From: an uncultured Chloroflexia bacterium
GTDB lineage: Bacteria > Chloroflexota > Dehalococcoidia > SM23-28-2 > RBG-16-64-32
DNA length: 64,000 bases
NCBI GenBank assembly: GCA_963738925.1
Contig: CAVTYE010000001.1
Location: forward strand, 770,159 to 834,158
Direction of reading: 5' to 3'
Part shown: positions 3,794 through 64,000 of the stretch, piece by piece
How the letters are laid out: every line of letters begins with the position of its first letter
How positions within the stretch are numbered: the stretch's first letter is position 1
The notes under the pieces: generated by a model
What the model saw: only the letters and a program-made list of their open reading frames with translations
Told to the model about the DNA's origin: nothing
Databases searched by the model: none
Translations under genes and position numbers: made by a program

Positions 3794-4369
3794 ATGCAGA
3801 CTACAGTTGGAATCGACCAGGCGCGCATCGCCCGCGCCGTCAGCGAGATCATCGCTGCCATTGGCGAGGACCCGCGCCGCGAAGGCCTGCTGGAGACGCC
3901 GGAGCGCATCGGCCGCCTCTACGCGGAGCTCTTCTCCGGCCTGACCCAGGACCCGCTGGACGTCCTCCGCCGCGGATTCGAGGAGCAGCACAAGGAGATG
4001 GTGATCCTGAAGGACATTCCCTTCTACTCCCTCTGCGAACACCACTTCCTGCCGTTCCACGGCGCGGCGCATGTCGGTTACGTGCCGGAAGGGCGCATCG
4101 TCGGCGTCAGCAAGCTGGCTCGCGTCGTCGATATACTGGCGCGGCGGCCGCAGCTGCAGGAGCGCCTGACAAGCCAGGTCGCCGACGCGATCATGGAAGG
4201 CCTGCACCCGGACGGCGTCGCCGTCGTGATCGAGGCGGAGCACCTTTGCATGACGATGCGCGGTGTCCAGAAGCCAGGCGCTCGCATGATCACCTCCGCC
4301 ATTCGCGGCGGCTTCCGCAGGCGGGGCGTGACGCGATCAGAGTTCCTCTCGCTCGTCCACGGGAAGTGA
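3794..4369 (+). CDS. folE: GTP cyclohydrolase I
   Basis: Motifs CEHHFLPF and GYVP. Typical 191-aa FolE. Confidence 0.9.
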
Positions 4370-35104: not shown

Positions 35105-35310
35105 GATTATCTGAGAAACACATTAGTTGTGGGTTAAAGAGCGATGACTGGTTATTAACGCCAGGACCAGCATTCACCAGTTCTGCTGAGAATCTTTCCG
35201 GCTCACCGGCTCTGCCCCGGCGGAGCACGGGTTGTATGATTCAAGTATCGAAAAGCATAGATTCTGGCACGATAAACCCGCCGCTGGCTTCAGTCTCTTC
35301 GGAGGAAATC

Positions 35311-36564
35311 ATGAAGATAGCGTCTTTCGTACCATCCAGCACGAACTCATCCAGGGCGATCCTGATCATCGAGGTGGCCCTGGTCATCGCAGCGGCGGCC
35401 ATCTGGTGGACCTTCGGCAGCGCCGCCGCCCAGACCAACAGCCTGGGAGTTGACCACAACGGCGGCTCGCCGGACATCAACGCCGGCCCGGCGCTGGTGG
35501 CCCAGGGCGCTTTGACAACCGTCTCGATAGTCGCCGATCCGCCGGTACCCGGCCTCGGCGGCTGGACAGTGAACGTCTTCTACGACCCGGCGGTGGTCAC
35601 CCCCACAGGCTGCGCCACGGCCGGGGATAGCTCCTCCTGCAACACGGCGTTCCTGAGCAACGCGGTGCGATTTTCCGGGCTGAAGGTCGCCGGGCTGTTC
35701 AACCCGACGGACATCGCAGACATCACGTTCCAGGGGGTCGGCTCCGCCGGTCAGTGCAGCGACCTGCAGCCGGAGGCGGTGAGCTGGAACGACCCATCGG
35801 CTGTCAACCTGATCCGGCCGACGGTATCGCTGGGCCAGGTGTGCGTGACCTCTGCGCCGACGCCGACCGCGTCGCCGACCGCCTCACCAACAGCCTCTCC
35901 GACAGCTTCGCCGACCGCCTCTCCGACTGCCTCACCAACCGCCTCTCCGACCGCTTCGCCGACGCCGACTGCCTCGCCAACCGCCTCTCCGACAGCTTCG
36001 CCGACGCCAACTGCATCCCCCACTCCGACAGCCTCTCCAACGCCATCTCCAACGCCCACCGCCTCGCCGACACCTTCACCAACGCCGACAGCCTCGCCGA
36101 CGGCATCGCCAACGCCGACCGCCTCGCCCACGGCCTCTCCGACGCCGACGCCAACTCCGACGGTCAAAGAGACGCCGTCGCCGACCGACAAGCCGACGCC
36201 CACACCAACTCCCACGAAGACGCCCGCCGGCGAGTGCGACGGGCGGCCCGCCACGATCGTCGGCACCGAGAGGAGCGACTGGATCTGGGGCACGCGCGGC
36301 GATGACGTGATCCTGGCGCTCGGCGGCAACGACCTCGTCTTCGGCAACGGCGGCGACGACGTCATCTGCCTGGGTCCCGGCCACGACGCCGCCATCGGAG
36401 GCCGCGGCGACGATCGCATCTTTGGTGAGGAAGGCAACGACGTGCTCTGGGGCGGTGGCGGCTCGGACTACCTTGACGGCGGTCCCGGCTTCGACCTCTG
36501 CTTCGGCGGCTGGGGCCACGACACAAAGGTGAACTGCGGCTTCTACTTCCGCTGGTTCCGCTAG
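35311..36564 (+). CDS. secreted protein with cohesin-like domain, (T/P)ASP linker and RTX-type Ca-binding repeats
   Basis: Signal or TM anchor, then a beta-rich cohesin-like domain, ~100 aa of [10 protein letters not shown] repeats and GGxGxD repeats ([15 protein letters not shown]...[13 protein letters not shown]). ATG follows GGAGG. Confidence 0.6.
35870..36160 (+). repeat. in-frame tandem 12/18-bp repeat encoding the (T/P)ASP linker
   Basis: Near-identical units: gcctc(g/t)cc(g/a)ac(a/c)gcc, etc. Confidence 0.7.
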
Positions 36565-36583: not shown

Positions 36584-36620
36584 AAGCGCCCGTCTGACCG
36601 GCGGGCGCTTCTCTTTGTGC
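36584..36620 (+). terminator. intrinsic terminator downstream of the repeat-protein gene
   Basis: Perfect 10-bp stem GAAGCGCCCG / CGGGCGCTTC with a 9-nt loop, followed by TCTCTTTGTG. Confidence 0.55.
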
Positions 36621-36661
36621 GCGCGGTTGCAGAAATCTAGCAAAGTGTTATGCTTGGCTTG

Positions 36662-36681
36662 AACCCCCACCGGGGGGGTAA
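36662..36681. promoter_or_regulatory. G/C-tract pseudo-palindrome AACCCCCACCGGGGGGGTAA, candidate CsoR operator
   Basis: Lies 23-42 bp upstream of the csoR ATG. The C5-ACC-G7 architecture resembles known CsoR/RicR operators. Confidence 0.45.
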
Positions 36682-36703: not shown

Positions 36704-36970
36704 ATGCAAGCTGAAAAGAAGACCGCCGTCCTCAAGCGCCTGGCGTTCATCGAAGGGCACCTCCAGGGGATCCGCCGCATGGTGGAGGGGGACAAGTACT
36801 GCGTCGATGTCCTGAAGCAGACCTTCGCCGTCCGCCGCGCCATCGAAAAGATGGAGGCGCTGATGCTGGACAACCACCTGCACACCTGCGTCCTCGAAGG
36901 CGTCCGCGAAGGCCGCGACGAGCAGGTGATCGGCGAGCTGCTGGACCTCTACGAGCTGGCCGGCCGCTGA
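36704..36970 (+). CDS. csoR: CsoR-family metal-sensing transcriptional repressor
   Basis: 88 aa with the family motif around Cys45 (YCVDVLKQ) and His/Cys at HTC. Directly upstream of copA. Confidence 0.8.
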
Positions 36971-36984
36971 CCGGAGACGCGAAC

Positions 36985-39523
<2,539 letters not shown>

Positions 39524-51157: not shown

Positions 51158-51433
51158 ATGGCCATAAACGTACGCATCCCGACGCCGCTGCGGAAGCTGA
51201 CCAGGGAAAAGGACATCGTTCAGGGCAGCGGCGATACCCTCGGCGAAGTGATCGAGACGCTGGAGGCGGAGTTTCCCGGCCTCAAGGACCGCCTCTGTGA
51301 CGAAACTGGCGAGCTGCGCCGCTTCGTCAACGTCTACGTGAACGGCGAAGACGTGCGGTTCCAGGACGGCCTCTCCACGCGCCTCACCGGCAACGACGAG
51401 GTCAGCATCGTCCCGGCCGTCGCCGGGGGCTAG
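51158..51433 (+). CDS. CysO/MoaD/ThiS-family sulfur carrier protein (MetO-like)
   Basis: 91 aa ending VPAVAGG. Core RFVNVYVNGEDVRF is like M. tuberculosis CysO. Confidence 0.75.
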   Translation: MAINVRIPTPLRKLTREKDIVQGSGDTLGEVIETLEAEFPGLKDRLCDETGELRRFVNVYVNGEDVRFQDGLSTRLTGNDEVSIVPAVAGG

Positions 51434-55516: not shown

Positions 55517-55595
55517 CCCAAGCGTTTCAAGTCAACGAACGCATGTAGAGACGCCCCCCGGGGCGTCTCTATGGCGTAACTGGAATGGACAACAC

Positions 55596-56783
55596 ATGAC
55601 ACCCGGTGAAACAAATCCTGCCCACGGCGGGCGCCTGATCGACCTGGTGGCCGGCGGCAGCGAGGCGCAGGCCCTGCGCGAGCAGACGGCGAAGATGCCC
55701 GCCGTCACGCTCAACTCGCGGACGCTGTCAGACCTGGAGCTCCTGGCCGTCGGCGGCTACAGCCCGCTGGAAGGCTTCATGACCCAGGCCGACTACCGCG
55801 CCGTCGTCGATGGCATGCACCTGGCGGACGGGCTGCCCTGGTCGATGCCGATCACCCTCGCCGTCAGCGACGAAGAGGCGCAGTCGATCAGCGAGGGCGA
55901 CGACATCGCCCTAGCCGATGAGACCGGCCGCATCCTGGCCTCGATGCACGTGCGTGAGAAGTTCGGCTACGACAAGCGAGTCGAGGCGGAGAACGTCTAC
56001 CGCACCGAAGACGAAAAGCACCCCGGCGTGGCCGCCCTCTACGCGCAGGGCGACGTCCTGCTCGGCGGGCCGGTGCGGGTGCTGGAAGTCCCGGGGCACG
56101 ACGACTTCCCGGAATACCGGCTGACCCCGGCGCAGACCCGGGCCGCCTTCGCTGAGCGCGGCTGGCGCACGATCGTCGGCTTCCAGACGCGGAACCCCGT
56201 GCACCGCGCCCACGAGTACATCCAGAAGGCGGCGATGGAGATCGTCGACGGCCTGCTGCTGCACCCGCTGGTCGGCGACACCAAGTCCGACGACATCCCC
56301 GCCGACGTGCGGATGCGCTGCTACGAGGTCCTGATCGAGAACTACTACCCGGCCGGCCGCGTCGTCCTCTCCGTGAACCCGGCGGCGATGCGCTACGCCG
56401 GCCCACGCGAGGCGATCTTCCACGCGCTGGTGCGCAAGAACTTCGGCTGCACCCACTTCATCGTTGGCCGTGACCACGCCGGCGTCGGCAACTACTACGG
56501 GACCTTCGATGCCCAGCTCATCTTCAACGAGTTCGATTCCCAGGCGCTGGGCATCGTGCCGCTGATGTTCGAGCACTCCTTCTACTGCAAGAAATGCGAC
56601 GGGCTGGCCAGCGTCAAGACCTGCCCCCACGACGCCGAGTCCCGCGTCAGCCTCTCCGGCACCCAGGTGCGCGACATGCTGAAAGGCGGGATCGCGCCGC
56701 CGCCGGAGTTCTCGCGCCCGGAAGTAGCCGAAGTGCTGATCAAGGCGATGCAGGACCACGCGACGCCGCACCATGCGATCTGA
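55596..56783 (+). CDS. sat: sulfate adenylyltransferase (ATP sulfurylase)
   Basis: QTRN and GRDHAG motifs. Confidence 0.9.
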
Positions 56784-56792
56784 TGGGCGCAC

Positions 56793-56809
56793 ATACCCCA
56801 CCGGGGTAT
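56793..56809. promoter_or_regulatory. perfect palindrome ATACCCC-ACC-GGGGTAT overlapping a TACAAT -10-like element, upstream of rrf2
   Basis: 7-bp arms. Shares the 11-mer CCCCACCGGGG with the site upstream of csoR. TACAAT at 56813-56818. Confidence 0.4.
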
Positions 56810-56843
56810 GCTACAATGTTGACGGAGATTATCGGGAATAGGG

Positions 56844-57296: not shown

Positions 57297-58220
57297 ATGG
57301 GCCAGAAGATAGCAGACAGCGTCCTCGACCTCGTCGGCAAGACGCCGATGGTCCGCCTCAGGCGGATCGTCCCGGCCGGATCGGCGGAAGTCCTGGGCAA
57401 GATGGAGTCGTTGAACCCGGCGGGCAGCGTCAAGGACCGCATCGCCCTCAACATGATCGAAGCGGCGGAGCGCGAAGGAAAGCTGAAGCCCGGCGACACG
57501 ATCATTGAGCCGACCAGCGGCAACACCGGCATCGGCCTGGCCATGGTCGCCGCCGTTAAAGGCTACAAGCTGGTCGTGACGATGCCGGAAGACATGAGCC
57601 TGGCCCGGCGCGACCTCCTGGCCCGCTACGGCGCCGAAGTCGTCCTGACGCCGGCGATCGAAGGCATGACCGGCGCCGTCTACGCAGCGCAGGAGCTGAT
57701 CGCCAAGAACAGCCAGCTACTTCATGTGCCAGCAGTTCGAAAACGCCGCCAACCCGGATATCCACCGACGCACAACCGCGCTCGGAGATCCTGGAGGCGA
57801 CCGAGGGCCGCCTCGACGCGTTCGTCGCCGGCGTCGGCACCGGCGGCACGATCACCGGCGTCGGCGAGGTGCTGCGCGAAAAGCTCGGCGCCGCGCTGCT
57901 GATCGTCGCGGTGGAGCCCTCGCGTTCGCCGGTCCTGGAAGGCGGCCGCGCCGGGGTCCACGCGATCCAGGGCATCGGCGCCAGCTTCGTGCCGGGCGTG
58001 CTGAACCGCGAGGTCTACAACGAGATCATCGCCGTCACCGACGAGGACGCGATCGAGATTTCGCGCCGGCTCTGTCGAGAGGAGGGGATGCTGGTCGGCA
58101 TCTCCGCCGGGGCCAACGTCTGGGCGGCCGATCAAAGTGGCCAAGCGCCTGGGCGCCGGCAAGCGCGTCGTGACTGTGCTTCGCGATACCGGTGAGCGAT
58201 ACTTGCAGATGGAGTCCTAA
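57297..58220 (+). pseudogene. cysK: cysteine synthase A (O-acetylserine sulfhydrylase), three +1 frameshifts in this sequence
   Basis: PLP lysine SVKDR, then in three further frames [24 protein letters not shown] and IKVAKRLGAGKRVVTVLRDTGERYLQMES. Each shift is a single inserted base. Confidence 0.8.
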
Positions 58221-58253
58221 AGTGCTGTCTGGATACAAAGATGAAAGTTAGCT

Positions 58254-59350
58254 GTGTACATCCCGACACCCTTCCGCCGCTTCGCGGGCAACCAGACCCG
58301 CGTCCACACGGAGGGCAACACCGTCGGCGAAGTGCTGGACCGGCTGGGCCAGGACTACCCTTCGCTGCGCAACATGATCTACGACGAGAAAGACGAGATC
58401 CCGGGCCACATCAACATCTACCTCAACAACACCGAGATCCACACGCTCCAGGGCAAGGCCACCATCGTCCACGACGGCGACGAGATGGCCGTGATCCCGG
58501 CCATCGCCGGCGGCGCCACGGCCCTGACCCCCGACCAGGTGGAGCGCTACTCGCGGCACATCATCATGCCGCAGGTCGGCCCTTCCGGGCAGCGCAAGCT
58601 GATGGAGGCGAAGGTGCTGATCGTCGGCGCGGGCGGCCTCGGCGGGCCGGCGGCGCTGTACCTGGCGCTGGCCGGCGTCGGCACCATCGGCATCGTCGAC
58701 TTCGACACCGTCGACCTCTCCAACCTGCAGCGGCAGGTGCTGCACCAGACCGCCGACGTCGGCAAGTCCAAGGCTCAGTCGGCCAAGGAGACCCTGAACG
58801 CCTACAACCCGGACGTCAAGGTGGTGCTGCACGAGACGCCGCTCACCTCCGACAACGCGATGGAGATCATCCCCCAGTACGACATCGTCGTGAACGGCGC
58901 CGACAACTTCACCACCCGCTACCTGGTCAACGACGCCGCGTACTTCGCCGGCAAGACGCTGGTGGACGGCAGCATCCTCCTCTTCGACGGGCAGGCCACG
59001 GTGTTCATGCCCGGCAAGGGCTGCTACCGCTGCCTCTTCCCCGCGCCGCCGCCGCCCGGCCTGGTGCCGAGCTGCGCCGAGGCCGGCGTCCTCGGCGCTC
59101 TGACCGGCATCATGGGCTCGATCCAGGCGACCGAGGCGATCAAGCATGATCCTGGAGATCGGCGAGCCGCTGGTCGGCCGCCTGCTCCTGGTCGATGCGC
59201 TGACGATGGAGTTCCGCGTCGTCAAGCTGCGGCGCGACCCGAAGTGCCCGCTCTGCGGCGACGACCCCGACGATCGAAGAGCTGATCGACTACGAAGGCT
59301 TCTGCGGTTCCCCGTTTCCCGGCGGCCACGAGGAACGGAGCCCAGCAGTC
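58254..59350 (+). pseudogene. moeZ: CysO/MoaD-like sulfur carrier fused to MoeB/MoeZ-type E1 adenylyltransferase, at least one frameshift near 59145. 3' end uncertain.
   Basis: N-terminal 87 aa ending AIAGG with HINIYLN. Continuous with RYSRHIIMPQVG and GAGGLGGP, then the CxxC...CPLCGDDP zinc motif in the next frame. No rhodanese domain. Confidence 0.6.
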
Positions 59351-59635: not shown

Positions 59636-60576
59636 ATGCTCGCTGAATCCATCCTCGATACGATCGGCAATACGCCGCTCGTCAAGCTGGCCAAGTTCAG
59701 CCCCAAGCCCGAGCGTCAACATCTACGCCAAGCTCGAGGGGCAGAACCCCACCGGCAGCGTCAAGGACCGCATCGCTGCTCTACATGATCCGCACGGCCG
59801 AGGCCAGCGGCGAGCTGACGCCCGACAAGACGGTGCTCGAGCCAACCAGCGGCAATACCGGCATCAGCCTGGCGATGGTCTGCCGGGCCAAGGGCTACCG
59901 GCTGGTCTGCGTCCTCCCAGACAACGTCACTGCCGAGCGCGAGTCGCTGTTGCGGGCCTTCGGCGCAGAGGTCGTCTACGCGGAGAACGCCACCAGCACC
60001 AACGACGCCGTCTTCAAGGCGCAGCGGATGCTGGCGGAGGACCCCGGCGCCTACTTCATGCCCTACCAGTACGGCAACGAGAACAACCCCCGCGCCCACT
60101 ACGAGACGACCGGCCCCGAGATCCTGCGCGACCTGCCGGAGATCGACATCTTCGTGGCCGGCCTGGGCACAGGTGGCACTTTGACCGGATGCGGCCACTT
60201 CCTGAAGGACAACCGGCCCGGCGTCAAGATCATCGCGGCGGTGCCCCACCCGGGCGACCTCGTGAGGGGCTGCGCGCTGTCGAGGAAGGGTTCATCCCGC
60301 CGGTGCTCGACGAGTCTGTGCTGGACGGCCGCATCGTCGTCGATTCGCTGGCGGCGTTTCGCGATGGCCAAAGAAGTGATGGAGAAAGAAGCGGTCTTCA
60401 CCGGCATCTCCGCCGGCGCGGTGCTGACCGTCGCCGTCCGCGCCGCCGAACGGCTGGAGCGCGGCAACGTCGTGGCGCTGCTGGCCGACGGCGGCTGGAA
60501 GTACCTCTCTACGGGTCTCTGGAGCCGCGACTACGGCGAGTCCCCGGAAGAGACGCAGGGCAAGATCTGGTGGTGA
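59636..60576 (+). pseudogene. cysM: CysM-type cysteine synthase (O-phosphoserine/CysO-thiocarboxylate dependent), about four indels in this sequence
   Basis: Segments [41 protein letters not shown]...EPTSGNTG and GLGTGGTLTG lie in alternating frames. Confidence 0.75.
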
Positions 60577-60982: not shown

Positions 60983-61375
60983 ATGCGCCTGCCCCAGGAC
61001 TTCGTCGACGAGATGGTGGCCCACGCCGTGGAGGACGCCCCCAACGAGTGCTGCGGCATCATCGCCGGCAAGGACGGCGCGGCGACCAAGCTCTACCGCG
61101 CGCGCAACTCGGAGGCCAGCCCCTACCGCTACAGCGTCGACCCCAAGGACCTGCTCCGCATCTTCCACGAGTGTGAGGACAACGACTGGTCGTTCCTGGC
61201 GATCTACCACTCCCACACCGCCAGCGAAGCCTACCCCTCCGGCACCGACGTCCGCCTGGCGTTCTGGCCGGAGGCCCGCTACGTCCTGGTCTCGCTGGCC
61301 CAGGAGAAGCCGGTTGTGCGCGCCTTCCGCATCGAAGAAGGCACCGTCACCGAAGAACCGATCGAGACGGCGTAG
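60983..61375 (+). CDS. mec: JAMM/MPN+ metalloprotease (Mec+-like CysO-cysteine peptidase)
   Basis: JAMM motif E...HSHTASEAYPSGTD plus the CCGII pattern. Confidence 0.8.
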   Translation: MRLPQDFVDEMVAHAVEDAPNECCGIIAGKDGAATKLYRARNSEASPYRYSVDPKDLLRIFHECEDNDWSFLAIYHSHTASEAYPSGTDVRLAFWPEARYVLVSLAQEKPVVRAFRIEEGTVTEEPIETA

Positions 61376-62462: not shown

Positions 62463-62883
62463 TGCGCGGCACCGGGATCGCAAACGTGAAGCGCCCCTTG
62501 GCGATAAGGTCGTTGCTGCCGCGCTTGCGCACCTCCGCTTCGCCGAAAGCGATCGAGCGGCCGACCCTGAGCGAGCTCCCTTCGACGATGATCTCATCGC
62601 CGGGGCGCGCCGCCGAAAGGAAGCTGACGTTCATCTCCACCGTTGCCGGCGGCGCGGCTCTCATCGCTTCCATGCCGCGAATGCCGGCCAGGACGGCCCC
62701 CGCCGTCTCATCCATCAGCGTCGTCAGGACTCCGCCGTGCATCACGCCGCCCGGGTTCAGGTGCTTCTCTTCGATCAGGAGCGCCATTCGTGCGTAGCCC
62801 TCCCGCTGCTCCTCCAGCCGCGCGCCGATCGCCTGCACGAACGCCGAAGGCAGGTCTGTCTGTGGTGTGGTCATCTGGTCCAT
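62455..62883 (-). CDS. PaaI/4HBT hotdog-fold thioesterase family protein (paralog)
   Basis: VMHGGVLTTLMDETAG signature. Confidence 0.7.
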   Translation of the reverse strand: MDQMTTPQTDLPSAFVQAIGARLEEQREGYARMALLIEEKHLNPGGVMHGGVLTTLMDETAGAVLAGIRGMEAMRAAPPATVEMNVSFLSAARPGDEIIVEGSSLRVGRSIAFGEAEVRKRGSNDLIAKGRFTFAIPVPRSA

Positions 62884-63723
62884 CCTCTCGCGACGGCGTC
62901 GGCCATCTTGGCCACGCGCGCCATCTGTTTCACGTCGTGCACGCGGATGATGTCCGCGCCGTTGGCGATGGCGATAGCCATCGTCGCGCCGGTGCCTTCG
63001 ATGCGGTCTTCCACCGGCAGGCCCAGCACGTTGCCGATCGTCGACTTGCGCGAGGTGCCGATCAGGACCGGCCGCCCGAGCACCCGCAGCTCACCCAGGC
63101 GGCGGAGCATCTCCAGCGCCTGGTCGTCCGTCCAGCCGAAGTTGAAGCCGGGGTCGACGATGATCTGCTCGTCCGGCAGCCCGTGCTCCCGCGCCACCGC
63201 CAGGCTCTCCAGGAGCCCTTCGACGACGTTGCCGATCGTGTCCTTGAACACGTGGCCGCGGTGGTAGTACATCGCGATCGCGGGCACACCGGCCCGGGCG
63301 GCTACGCTCGCGATCTCCGGCTCGCGCAGGAACCCGTGCACGTCGTTGACGAGCGCCGCGCCGGCTTCGATGGCTGCCTTGGCGACTCGCGGCCTTGTAG
63401 GTGTCGATGCTGACCGGGATGTCCAGCTCTCGCGCCAGCCGTTCAACCACCGGGACCGTACGACGCAGCTCTTCGTCCTCCTCCACCTCGGCGAAGCCGG
63501 GCCGCGTCGACTCGCCGCCGACGTCGATGATGTCGGCGCCGTCCTCCCGCATCTGGACGGCCTGTCGCAGCGCCGCCTCGACGTCGCCGCTGAGCCCGTC
63601 GCCGGAGAACGAGTCCGGCGTCACGTTGACGACGCCCATCACGTACGTCCGCGAGCCCCAGGCGAACTCCCGCCCGCCGATCCTGATCGGCGCCGGGGCG
63701 CGGGCCGCGATCTCGCTGGGCAT
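62871..63723 (-). pseudogene. folP: dihydropteroate synthase, +1 frameshift near 63395 in this sequence
   Basis: N-terminal GVVNVTPDSFSGDG and DIIDVGGESTRPG, and C-terminal LIGTSRKS...GADIIRVHDV, lie in two frames. Removing one g in tacaagGccg restores the reading frame. Confidence 0.8.
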
Positions 63724-63792
63724 ATCAGGCCTAATGATGGCAGATACTCCGCGTGATTGAAAACGCCGCCTCCGTGCACTATCGTTTGCGCC

Positions 63793-64000
63793 ATGAGCGA
63801 CTACCCGAACCCAGGCATCCTGGCCGAGACGGACTGGCTCGCCGAGCACATGGGCGACCCAAACCTGCGAATCGTGGACTGCGACGAGCTACCGGCCTAC
63901 CTGCGCGTCCACATCGACGGCGCGGTCGGCCTGCGCGTGCACCATTACCTGAAGAGCGAGGGCGATTCGGCATCCGGCCCCGGCATCGGCGTGAACCTGA
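63793..64000 (+). CDS. rhodanese-domain sulfurtransferase (N-terminal part; 3' end outside window)
   Basis: Open frame from ATG 63793: MSDYPNPGILAETDWLAEHMGDPNLRIVDCDELPAYLRVHIDGAV, a typical thiosulfate/3-mercaptopyruvate sulfurtransferase N-terminus. Confidence 0.5.
   Translation, partial: MSDYPNPGILAETDWLAEHMGDPNLRIVDCDELPAYLRVHIDGAVGLRVHHYLKSEGDSASGPGIGVNL

Follow-up and report, generated by a model that had tools for sequence, protein, structure and literature searches.

Our findings indicate that a short inverted repeat in the core promoter of the rrf2-cysK operon of an uncultured soil Dehalococcoidia bacterium, here called site A, is probably the operator of a CsoR-family repressor of the copper- or persulfide-sensing kind, a reading to which we give a probability of about 0.7. 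The assignment follows from the exact match of the repeat to a published CsoR operator rule, from its fixed and conserved position in the promoters of related genomes, and from the adjacency of the same motif to CsoR-family genes elsewhere. The element was recognised in a 64,000-nucleotide stretch of DNA (the window, 67% GC) because it shares an 11-base core with a second element, site B, upstream of csoR-copA. The original prediction was that both sites have the architecture of CsoR-family operators, and this was supported; relatives conserve site A, and the motif generally adjoins CsoR-family genes. In the literature consulted we found no account of a site of this kind in Chloroflexota or ahead of an rrf2-cysK operon. 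The coordinates of the features discussed here are collected in Table 1.

Table 1. Regulatory elements and genes of the csoR-copA and rrf2-cysK regions, numbered along the window.
Feature	Position	Strand	Basis or remark
-35-like TTGCAG of the csoR promoter	36627-36632		assigned from the consensus
Extended -10 TGtTATGCT of the csoR promoter	36646-36654	+	assigned from the consensus
Site B, putative csoR-class operator AACCCCCACCGGGGGGGTAAGGGTAA	36662-36687	+	between csoR -10 and ribosome-binding site; consensus kept in 10 lineages
csoR, 88 aa, x-C-H-C Cu(I) fingerprint, helix 1 KRLAFIEGH	36704-36970	+	PF02583, 1.6e-23
copA, P1B-type ATPase, two HMA domains, one frame change near 38930	36985-39523	+	directly after csoR
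sat, ATP sulfurylase	55596-56783	+	upstream of site A
Site A, putative CsoR-family type operator (TAC-X9-GTA)	56793-56809	.	sequence, uniqueness, conservation, PMC3902906 rule, CsoR-family gene adjacency
Extended -10 TGcTACAAT, rrf2 operon promoter	56809-56817	+	assigned from the consensus; TGnTAnnAT in 81/81 aligned promoters
Post -10 box remnant (GTTGACGGAGATTATCGGGAATA), predicted Rrf2 operator, overlaps ribosome-binding site	56818-56840	+	alignment with 80 relatives
rrf2, CymR/IscR-like regulator, 147 aa	56844-57287	+	PF02082, 4.9e-38
cysK, cysteine synthase A, frame broken at least 3 times	57297-58220	+	L002 ortholog passes TIGR01139 cutoff
thiS-thiF fusion (CysO/MoeZ-like sulfur carrier and activating enzyme), 2 frame changes	58248-59335	+	
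Second PLP cysteine synthase (CysM-like), frame changes near start	59636-60573	+	
Prok-JAB (Mec-like) peptidase, last recognisable gene of the cysteine operon	60983-61375	+	PF14464, 2.5e-24

Site A is a 17-base element, ATACCCC-ACC-GGGGTAT (ATACCCCACCGGGGTAT), in which two 7-bp arms, perfectly complementary in inverted order, enclose the non-palindromic 3-bp centre ACC, so that the description of the site as a perfect palindrome has to be amended. It had also been said to overlap the -10-like TACAAT, but it abuts this hexamer (56812-56817), which begins 2 nt past the end of the site, and only the final T of site A is common to both elements, as the T of the extended -10. With TACAAT taken as -12 to -7, the site extends from approximately -31 to -15 of the rrf2 promoter, and the sat stop codon is located 9 nt upstream of it. 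An independent short assembly (L226, a 1.2-kb contig) is identical across site A and the promoter. As had been claimed, the same 11-mer, CCCCACCGGGG, occurs in sites A and B; these are its only two copies in the window, where 0.09 would be expected, and a count of two was never attained in 300 dinucleotide shuffles. The pattern AC4+-N0-6-G4+T likewise matches the window at sites A and B only. The suspicion that the motif recurs by chance in DNA of this composition therefore does not apply to the exact 11-mer, although it holds for the form with one mismatch, which is not enriched in the window (4 copies vs 3.4 expected).

The closest relatives of both the Rrf2 and the CsoR of the window come, in all cases, from uncultured Dehalococcoidia MAGs, and 80 genome loci with Rrf2 orthologs were compared with the window, giving 81 promoters. 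An element of the site A type is present in 22 of these 81 related promoters and absent from 59; it appears as TACCC-N5-GGGTA in 15, and as ATAC-N9-GTAT with an eroded G tract in seven more. The TAC-X9-GTA spacing is retained in 22/22 of these sites, and the core promoter is reached in every one, the element ending 2 nt 5' of TGnTAnnAT in promoters assigned from their consensus. Information is concentrated in the arms, which are invariant, with about 0.1 bit in the three central bases and about 0.2 bit in the upstream flank. It is from the -10 that the site keeps a constant distance, not from the stop codon upstream, and the gene there differs among loci. A search of 727 kb of related DNA placed the strict motif at these rrf2 promoters alone. 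Several variants (ATACCCCCTACCCGTAT) keep the TAC/GTA spacing and have lost the hairpin, which favours recognition by a protein over an RNA structure. The rrf2 promoters of two further loci carry degenerate versions of site A, ATACCCCAGGGGGGGTTGATAC in L027 (~3915-3945), with a G7 run, and ATACACTGAGGGGATAT in L028 (~3945-3965), which may be decaying sites or intermediates of the two operator classes described below.

The architecture of site A agrees with that established for CsoR operators. In Streptomyces lividans, type 2 CsoR operators follow the consensus ATATACCCCTNAGGGGTATAT, and a TAC-X9-GTA dyad flanking G/C tracts is common to the CsoR operators and essential for binding (PMC3902906). 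Site A, written as TAC-CCCACCGGG-GTA, matches this rule exactly, with invariant C4 and G4 tracts as arms and a short free centre, and the operator of the persulfide-sensing CstR of S. mitis, ATACCCTTATGGGGTAT, has an identical architecture (PMC8643695). A metagenome scan with ATACCCCNNNGGGGTAT, in which neighbours within 500 bp were scored, yielded 120 loci. A CsoR-family (PF02583-like) gene was found within this distance in 54 of them and a CsoR-family or CopA-like gene beside the motif in 64, and Rrf2 neighbours were found in 0/120. As a control, tblastn of CsoR against the 80 rrf2 loci (~640 kb) returned no CsoR-family gene.

Site B (AACCCCCACCGGGGGGGTAA, 36662-36681) was correctly positioned in the original prediction, but the gap to the csoR ATG (36704), given there as 23 bp, is 22 nt. 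The csoR promoters of the window and of nine further lineages share the consensus ACCCC-N-ACCGGGGGGGT-NN-GGG(T/A)A in 10/10 cases, amid diverged flanks; no lineage departs from the G7 run or the ACC, all have a second G tract, and the tract lengths of site B (C5 and G7) are seen again in independent short-read assemblies of relatives. Site B does not follow the TAC-X9-GTA rule, since it reads AAC...GTA with about 13 bp in between, and over the 10 lineages the left triplet is AAC, GAC or TAC and the right one GTA, GTT, GTC or GTG. It bears some resemblance to the long CsoR operator of M. tuberculosis, the right half, G7-T-NN-GGGTA, being similar and the left reading GTAGACCCCCACC in some lineages, with poor symmetry. 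The extended -10 of this promoter was not called by a simple promoter scan.

The csoR gene of the window appears to encode a sensor of the Cu(I) type, as judged from its PF02583 fold, its x-C-H-C fingerprint and its operon with copA. The segments YCVDVLKQ and HLHTC are conserved in 120 CsoR orthologs, M. tuberculosis CsoR (2hh7) is the best relative among solved structures, and the csoR-copA arrangement is found in relatives too. Several variations around csoR were recorded. Between csoR and copA, loci L091, L093, L102, L223 and L225 carry a gene for a class I SAM methyltransferase (about 210 aa) that is missing from the window; L223 has in addition an 89-aa ORF and a PEMT-family gene downstream of csoR, and both L223 and L224 have YHS-domain, cupredoxin and ABC-transporter genes upstream of it. 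Tandem 7-base repeats fill the leader right downstream of CsoR-type sites at two unrelated loci, as AGTAGTG/AGTGGTG units before csoR in L223 (~1395-1495) and as GTCGTAA/GTCGTGA units after the ATACCCCAGGGGGGTAT site in L109 (3343-3470). In the window, the gene upstream of csoR (35236-36564) encodes a 442-aa protein whose C-terminal Gly/Asp-rich repeats resemble RTX calcium-binding repeats, and it is followed by a terminator-like hairpin at 36591-36607.

Sites A and B thus represent two operator classes, that of csoR having a dyad spacing about 4 bp longer, a G7 run and a second GGGTA tract. None of the 10 csoR promoters contains TAC-X9-GTA and none of the 22 rrf2 sites combines a G7 run with a GGGTA tract. 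The classes are distinct in 5/5 pairs from the same genome, in which the csoR site is constant: the window (rrf2 centre ACC; csoR site B), DAINDD01 (L002, ACC; L081), DATKKM01 (L003, GGT; L098), DATKDX01 (L022, TTG; L097) and JBBISJ01 (L008, TAT; L223). The shared 11-mer CCCCACCGGGG, real as it is, does not on this comparison qualify as a conserved recognition element, because its ACC centre is free at the rrf2 sites and invariant at the csoR sites.

This separation bears directly on the identity of the protein that would bind site A. One of the two readings in the original prediction was that CsoR also represses the cysteine-synthesis operon, and a CsoR-family operator does appear to lie in the core promoter of that operon; it is the choice of the linked CsoR (36704-36970), encoded 20 kb away, as the binder that the separate site classes lean against. 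That this protein binds both sites, so that Cu(I) directly derepresses the cysteine operon, we consider possible though rather unlikely. It is the sole CsoR-family gene product of the window, and M. tuberculosis provides a known case of a cysteine synthase under copper control by a repressor of the CsoR family. The excess of the common core over expectation points the same way, as do a 12-base core common to sites A and B in the window and again in DAINDD01, and the left halves, (T/A/G)ACCCC-N-ACCGG, which are alike for both classes in several lineages. An ACC/GGT centre is also found in about 10 of the 22 rrf2 sites vs 1 of 122 generic sites, a coincidence that shared ancestry can explain. 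Against these similarities stand the lack of any mixing between the classes, the difference in dyad spacing, and a centre that differs in three of the five same-genome pairs. Furthermore, in characterised CsoR systems the operators of one CsoR all keep the same dyad (PMC3902906), a related repressor lost affinity 10-15 fold on one-base changes in spacing, and the two CsoR-family paralogues of T. thermophilus share no sites (PMC10318464).

Given that the csoR promoters form a separate class in 10 lineages and in the five same-genome pairs, we lean modestly towards an unlinked second paralogue, RicR- or CstR-like, over the linked CsoR as the putative binder of site A. By tblastn, csoR was the sole CsoR-family gene of the 64-kb window, and in the 80 relatives no such gene lay closer to rrf2 than 4 kb; nor was a CstR-like protein, with a Cys pair and without the His, identified in the window. 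A Dehalococcoidia paralogue was also sought among the metagenome motif loci, where the nameable neighbours belonged to Pseudolabrys, Solirubrobacterales and Coriobacteriaceae and the others carried no taxon. We had considered that the RLAF of the window CsoR, in place of an RLXR motif, might prevent it from reading TAC/GTA, an argument that was dropped: a few CsoR-family proteins without the second Arg of RLXR (RLKI type) also adjoin canonical TAC-X9-GTA sites, and hence the RLAF motif does not exclude binding.

Regulators of other families were also considered for site A. The dyad centres of MerR-type sites lie at about -23, and that of site A is located at approximately the same position; besides, a TTGC -35 stands 19-20 bp from the -10 in some relatives, as would suit a MerR-type activator acting on the spacer. 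However, most site-bearing promoters show an 18-bp spacer or no recognisable -35, and the exact match to the CsoR rule together with the co-occurrence with CsoR-family genes argues both against such an activator and against a non-functional chance resemblance, the latter being excluded by arms that are invariant across 22 lineages. We therefore regard a regulator of another family, or mere chance, as quite improbable.

Since site A is located within the rrf2 promoter, it could instead serve Rrf2 itself, either as an autoregulatory operator or as a site for which Rrf2 and CsoR compete. Some Rrf2 operators, those of IscR type 1, start with ATA and finish with TAT, as does site A. Nevertheless, the presence of the site does not track the regulator: 59 of the 81 orthologous promoters are without it although the winged helix-turn-helix is unchanged, residues 26-66 being the same whether taken from the 22 site-bearing loci or from 27 close relatives that lack the site. 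The motif, moreover, associates with CsoR-family genes and not with Rrf2, and a different box following the -10 is kept in 80/80 relatives. A role of Rrf2 at site A is on these grounds very improbable, and it is unlikely that Rrf2 and CsoR compete for related sites, as had been put forward, given that the DNA-reading head of Rrf2 is the same with or without site A and that Rrf2 appears to have a box of its own.

This separate box, of approximately 28 bp and with the consensus ATTGTTGACAGAGTTACTCTACTTTATC, follows the -10 in the rrf2 promoters of all 80 relatives (e.g. L055, ~3935-3965), at 23 to 105 nt from the start codon. Its inner dyad, AGAGT-T-ACTCT, covaries to GGAGT-T-ACTCC in some loci, and we consider the box most likely to be the autoregulatory operator of Rrf2, as predicted from the alignment. 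In the subclade of the window only the left half of the box is kept, the ribosome-binding site replacing the right half, and a matrix scan of the window for the box gave no matches, its own degenerate copy being missed too. With site A and a separate conserved box after the -10, the promoter seems to carry two operators. The only other strong copy of the box outside an rrf2 promoter, AATCTTGACTTAATCACTCGACTTTCTT (score 28.5), was found in L045 at 1494-1521, 2.5 kb upstream of rrf2, and may denote a second member of the regulon. As for the regulator, Cys93, Cys100 and Cys106 of Rrf2 are invariant, and its best NCBIfam match is CymR, under the cutoff; it is also below the IscR cutoff. The three cysteines may hold an Fe-S cluster, a cofactor that B. 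subtilis CymR is not known to carry.

Least probable of all is that the inverted repeat acts as an RNA hairpin terminating or stabilising the sat transcript: the repeat begins 9 nt past the stop codon of sat, and its arms could pair into a 7-bp stem closing a 3-nt loop, but no T run follows (the tail is GCTACAATGTTG), the terminator scan made no call, regional folding is no better than that of shuffles (z = -0.39), and the arms are conserved without compensatory changes. An intrinsic terminator was accordingly rejected, and the position tied to the -10 over varying upstream genes, the variants that are unpaired and still TAC-X9-GTA, the missing T run and the ordinary folding together argue for a protein-binding DNA site.

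The operon governed by this promoter comprises rrf2, cysK, the thiS-thiF fusion, the CysM-like gene and the JAB (Mec-like) gene, and so combines the direct and the thiocarboxylate routes to cysteine. Several reading frames of the window are broken: copA once (38930), cysK at least 3 times (57700-58190), thiS-thiF twice (59147-59267) and cysM 2-3 times (59640-59780), and a folP-like gene is split (62871-63849). Because many genes are affected and their orthologs are intact in relatives, we suspect indel errors from long-read assembly and not true pseudogenes. In relatives, a gene between sat and rrf2 (L002, 2797-3915) encodes a membrane protein of 372 aa that resembles Na/Pi cotransporters (PF02690) and may be a permease for sulfate or thiosulfate; no homolog is present anywhere in the window, where sat directly abuts the rrf2 promoter (56783-56793). 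Further upstream, a long perfect hairpin, GAGACGCCCCCCGGGGCGTCTC, occupies 55544-55573 between cysH and sat and, despite having no T run after it, looks like a terminator or attenuator within the sulfate-assimilation cluster. A free-standing ORF of 91 aa (51158-51430) precedes the sulfite reductase gene; it is ThiS-like, with 35% identity to the ThiS portion of the fusion, and from this similarity would be a second sulfur-carrier protein of the cluster.

Comparison with known systems indicates what is familiar and what is distinctive in this arrangement. Both the operator class and a link between the CsoR family and cysteine synthase are already known, the latter from M. tuberculosis. Site A shares with the CsoR operators of S. 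lividans the TAC-X9-GTA dyad, the C/G-tract arms, the short free centre and the location in the core promoter, but the targets there are csoR or copZA, whereas here they are a regulator and a cysteine-synthesis operon in Chloroflexota (PMC3902906). The operators of CstR have an identical architecture and a tie to sulfur metabolism, as in S. mitis, yet known CstR targets are genes of sulfide oxidation and detoxification and not of cysteine synthesis (PMC8643695). In Thermus thermophilus, CsoR (TTHA1719) and TTHA1953 are paralogues with mutually exclusive operators, one set serving copper export and the other sox, and the TtCsoR site, CCCCACCCCACCTGGGGTGGGG, has a CCCCACC element in common with site B; the TTHA1953 site, unlike site A, is without long G/C tracts, and its targets are sulfur oxidation genes instead of cysteine synthesis (PMC10318464).

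The closest parallel is perhaps offered by M. tuberculosis, where two operator classes likewise exist in one genome, the long G-tract class being located at the operon of csoR and a P-type ATPase. The CsoR of this organism controls the ATPase operon through a long G-tract operator, GTAGCCCACCCC-N4-GGGGTGGGATAC, a pseudo-palindrome whose left half has interrupted C tracts and whose right half has two G tracts. Site B bears some resemblance to it, and the window CsoR has M. tuberculosis CsoR as its best solved relative. The RicR motif belongs to the short palindrome class and is found at a cysteine-synthase operon. The RicR regulon includes lpqS-cysK2, among the most copper-induced loci (PMC3944814; bioRxiv 10.64898/2026.04.16.718964). 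M. tuberculosis differs in possessing a second, RicR-like gene, the counterpart of which was found neither in the window nor within 4 kb of rrf2 in relatives, and the downstream operon here consists of rrf2, cysK, thiS/thiF, cysM and mec. With respect to the box after the -10, autoregulation of the CymR/IscR type is similar in having an Rrf2 gene at the head of a cysteine operon and a conserved dyad box across the region of the transcription start, but the Rrf2 described here falls below the NCBIfam cutoffs of both families and the sequence of the box corresponds to no known motif of CymR or IscR.

CsoR-family repressors are four-helix-bundle tetramers, two of which occupy each site in characterised cases. 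What the comparison shows is the motif, where it lies, how it is conserved and that it generally accompanies CsoR-family genes; repression, the binder and the inducer are our inference and may be envisaged as follows. The apo-repressor on site A would cover the -35/spacer region and touch the extended -10, and this location would exclude RNA polymerase. The inducer, Cu(I) in the case of a CsoR/RicR-type sensor or persulfide in that of a CstR-type one, would free the repressor from the DNA, and its release would increase transcription of rrf2 and of the genes of cysteine synthesis. Rrf2 could provide a second input, modulating expression at the start site through the post -10 box.

As a practical rule, the comparison of sites A and B warns that a common core of two G/C-tract sites does not imply a single regulator, operator classes being defined by the outer dyad, the spacing and the tract lengths. 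If a single Cu-sensing CsoR did recognise the TAC-X9-GTA site of 15 bp as well as the G7 site of 26 bp, it would be a case of one CsoR with two operator architectures, and we know of no description of such a protein. If, on the other hand, the sensor at site A were persulfide-responsive, reactive sulfur would for the first time be seen to control cysteine biosynthesis through a CsoR-family protein. To our knowledge, regulation in Chloroflexota is almost unstudied and the clade is without isolates. We tentatively propose that uncultured Dehalococcoidia may possess a RicR/CstR-like second CsoR-family sensor, with a regulon in which a dual-input promoter, bearing a CsoR-type box over the -35/spacer and a start-site box for an Fe-S Rrf2, gates both the CysK and the CysO-thiocarboxylate/CysM/Mec routes. 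Should site A be the operator of a CsoR-family repressor, the control exerted by this family would reach a cysteine-synthesis operon, beyond metal export and sulfide detoxification, and the parallel with the copper induction of cysK2 via RicR, reported not long ago in M. tuberculosis, suggests a recurrent link between the sensing of copper or reactive sulfur and the supply of thiols.
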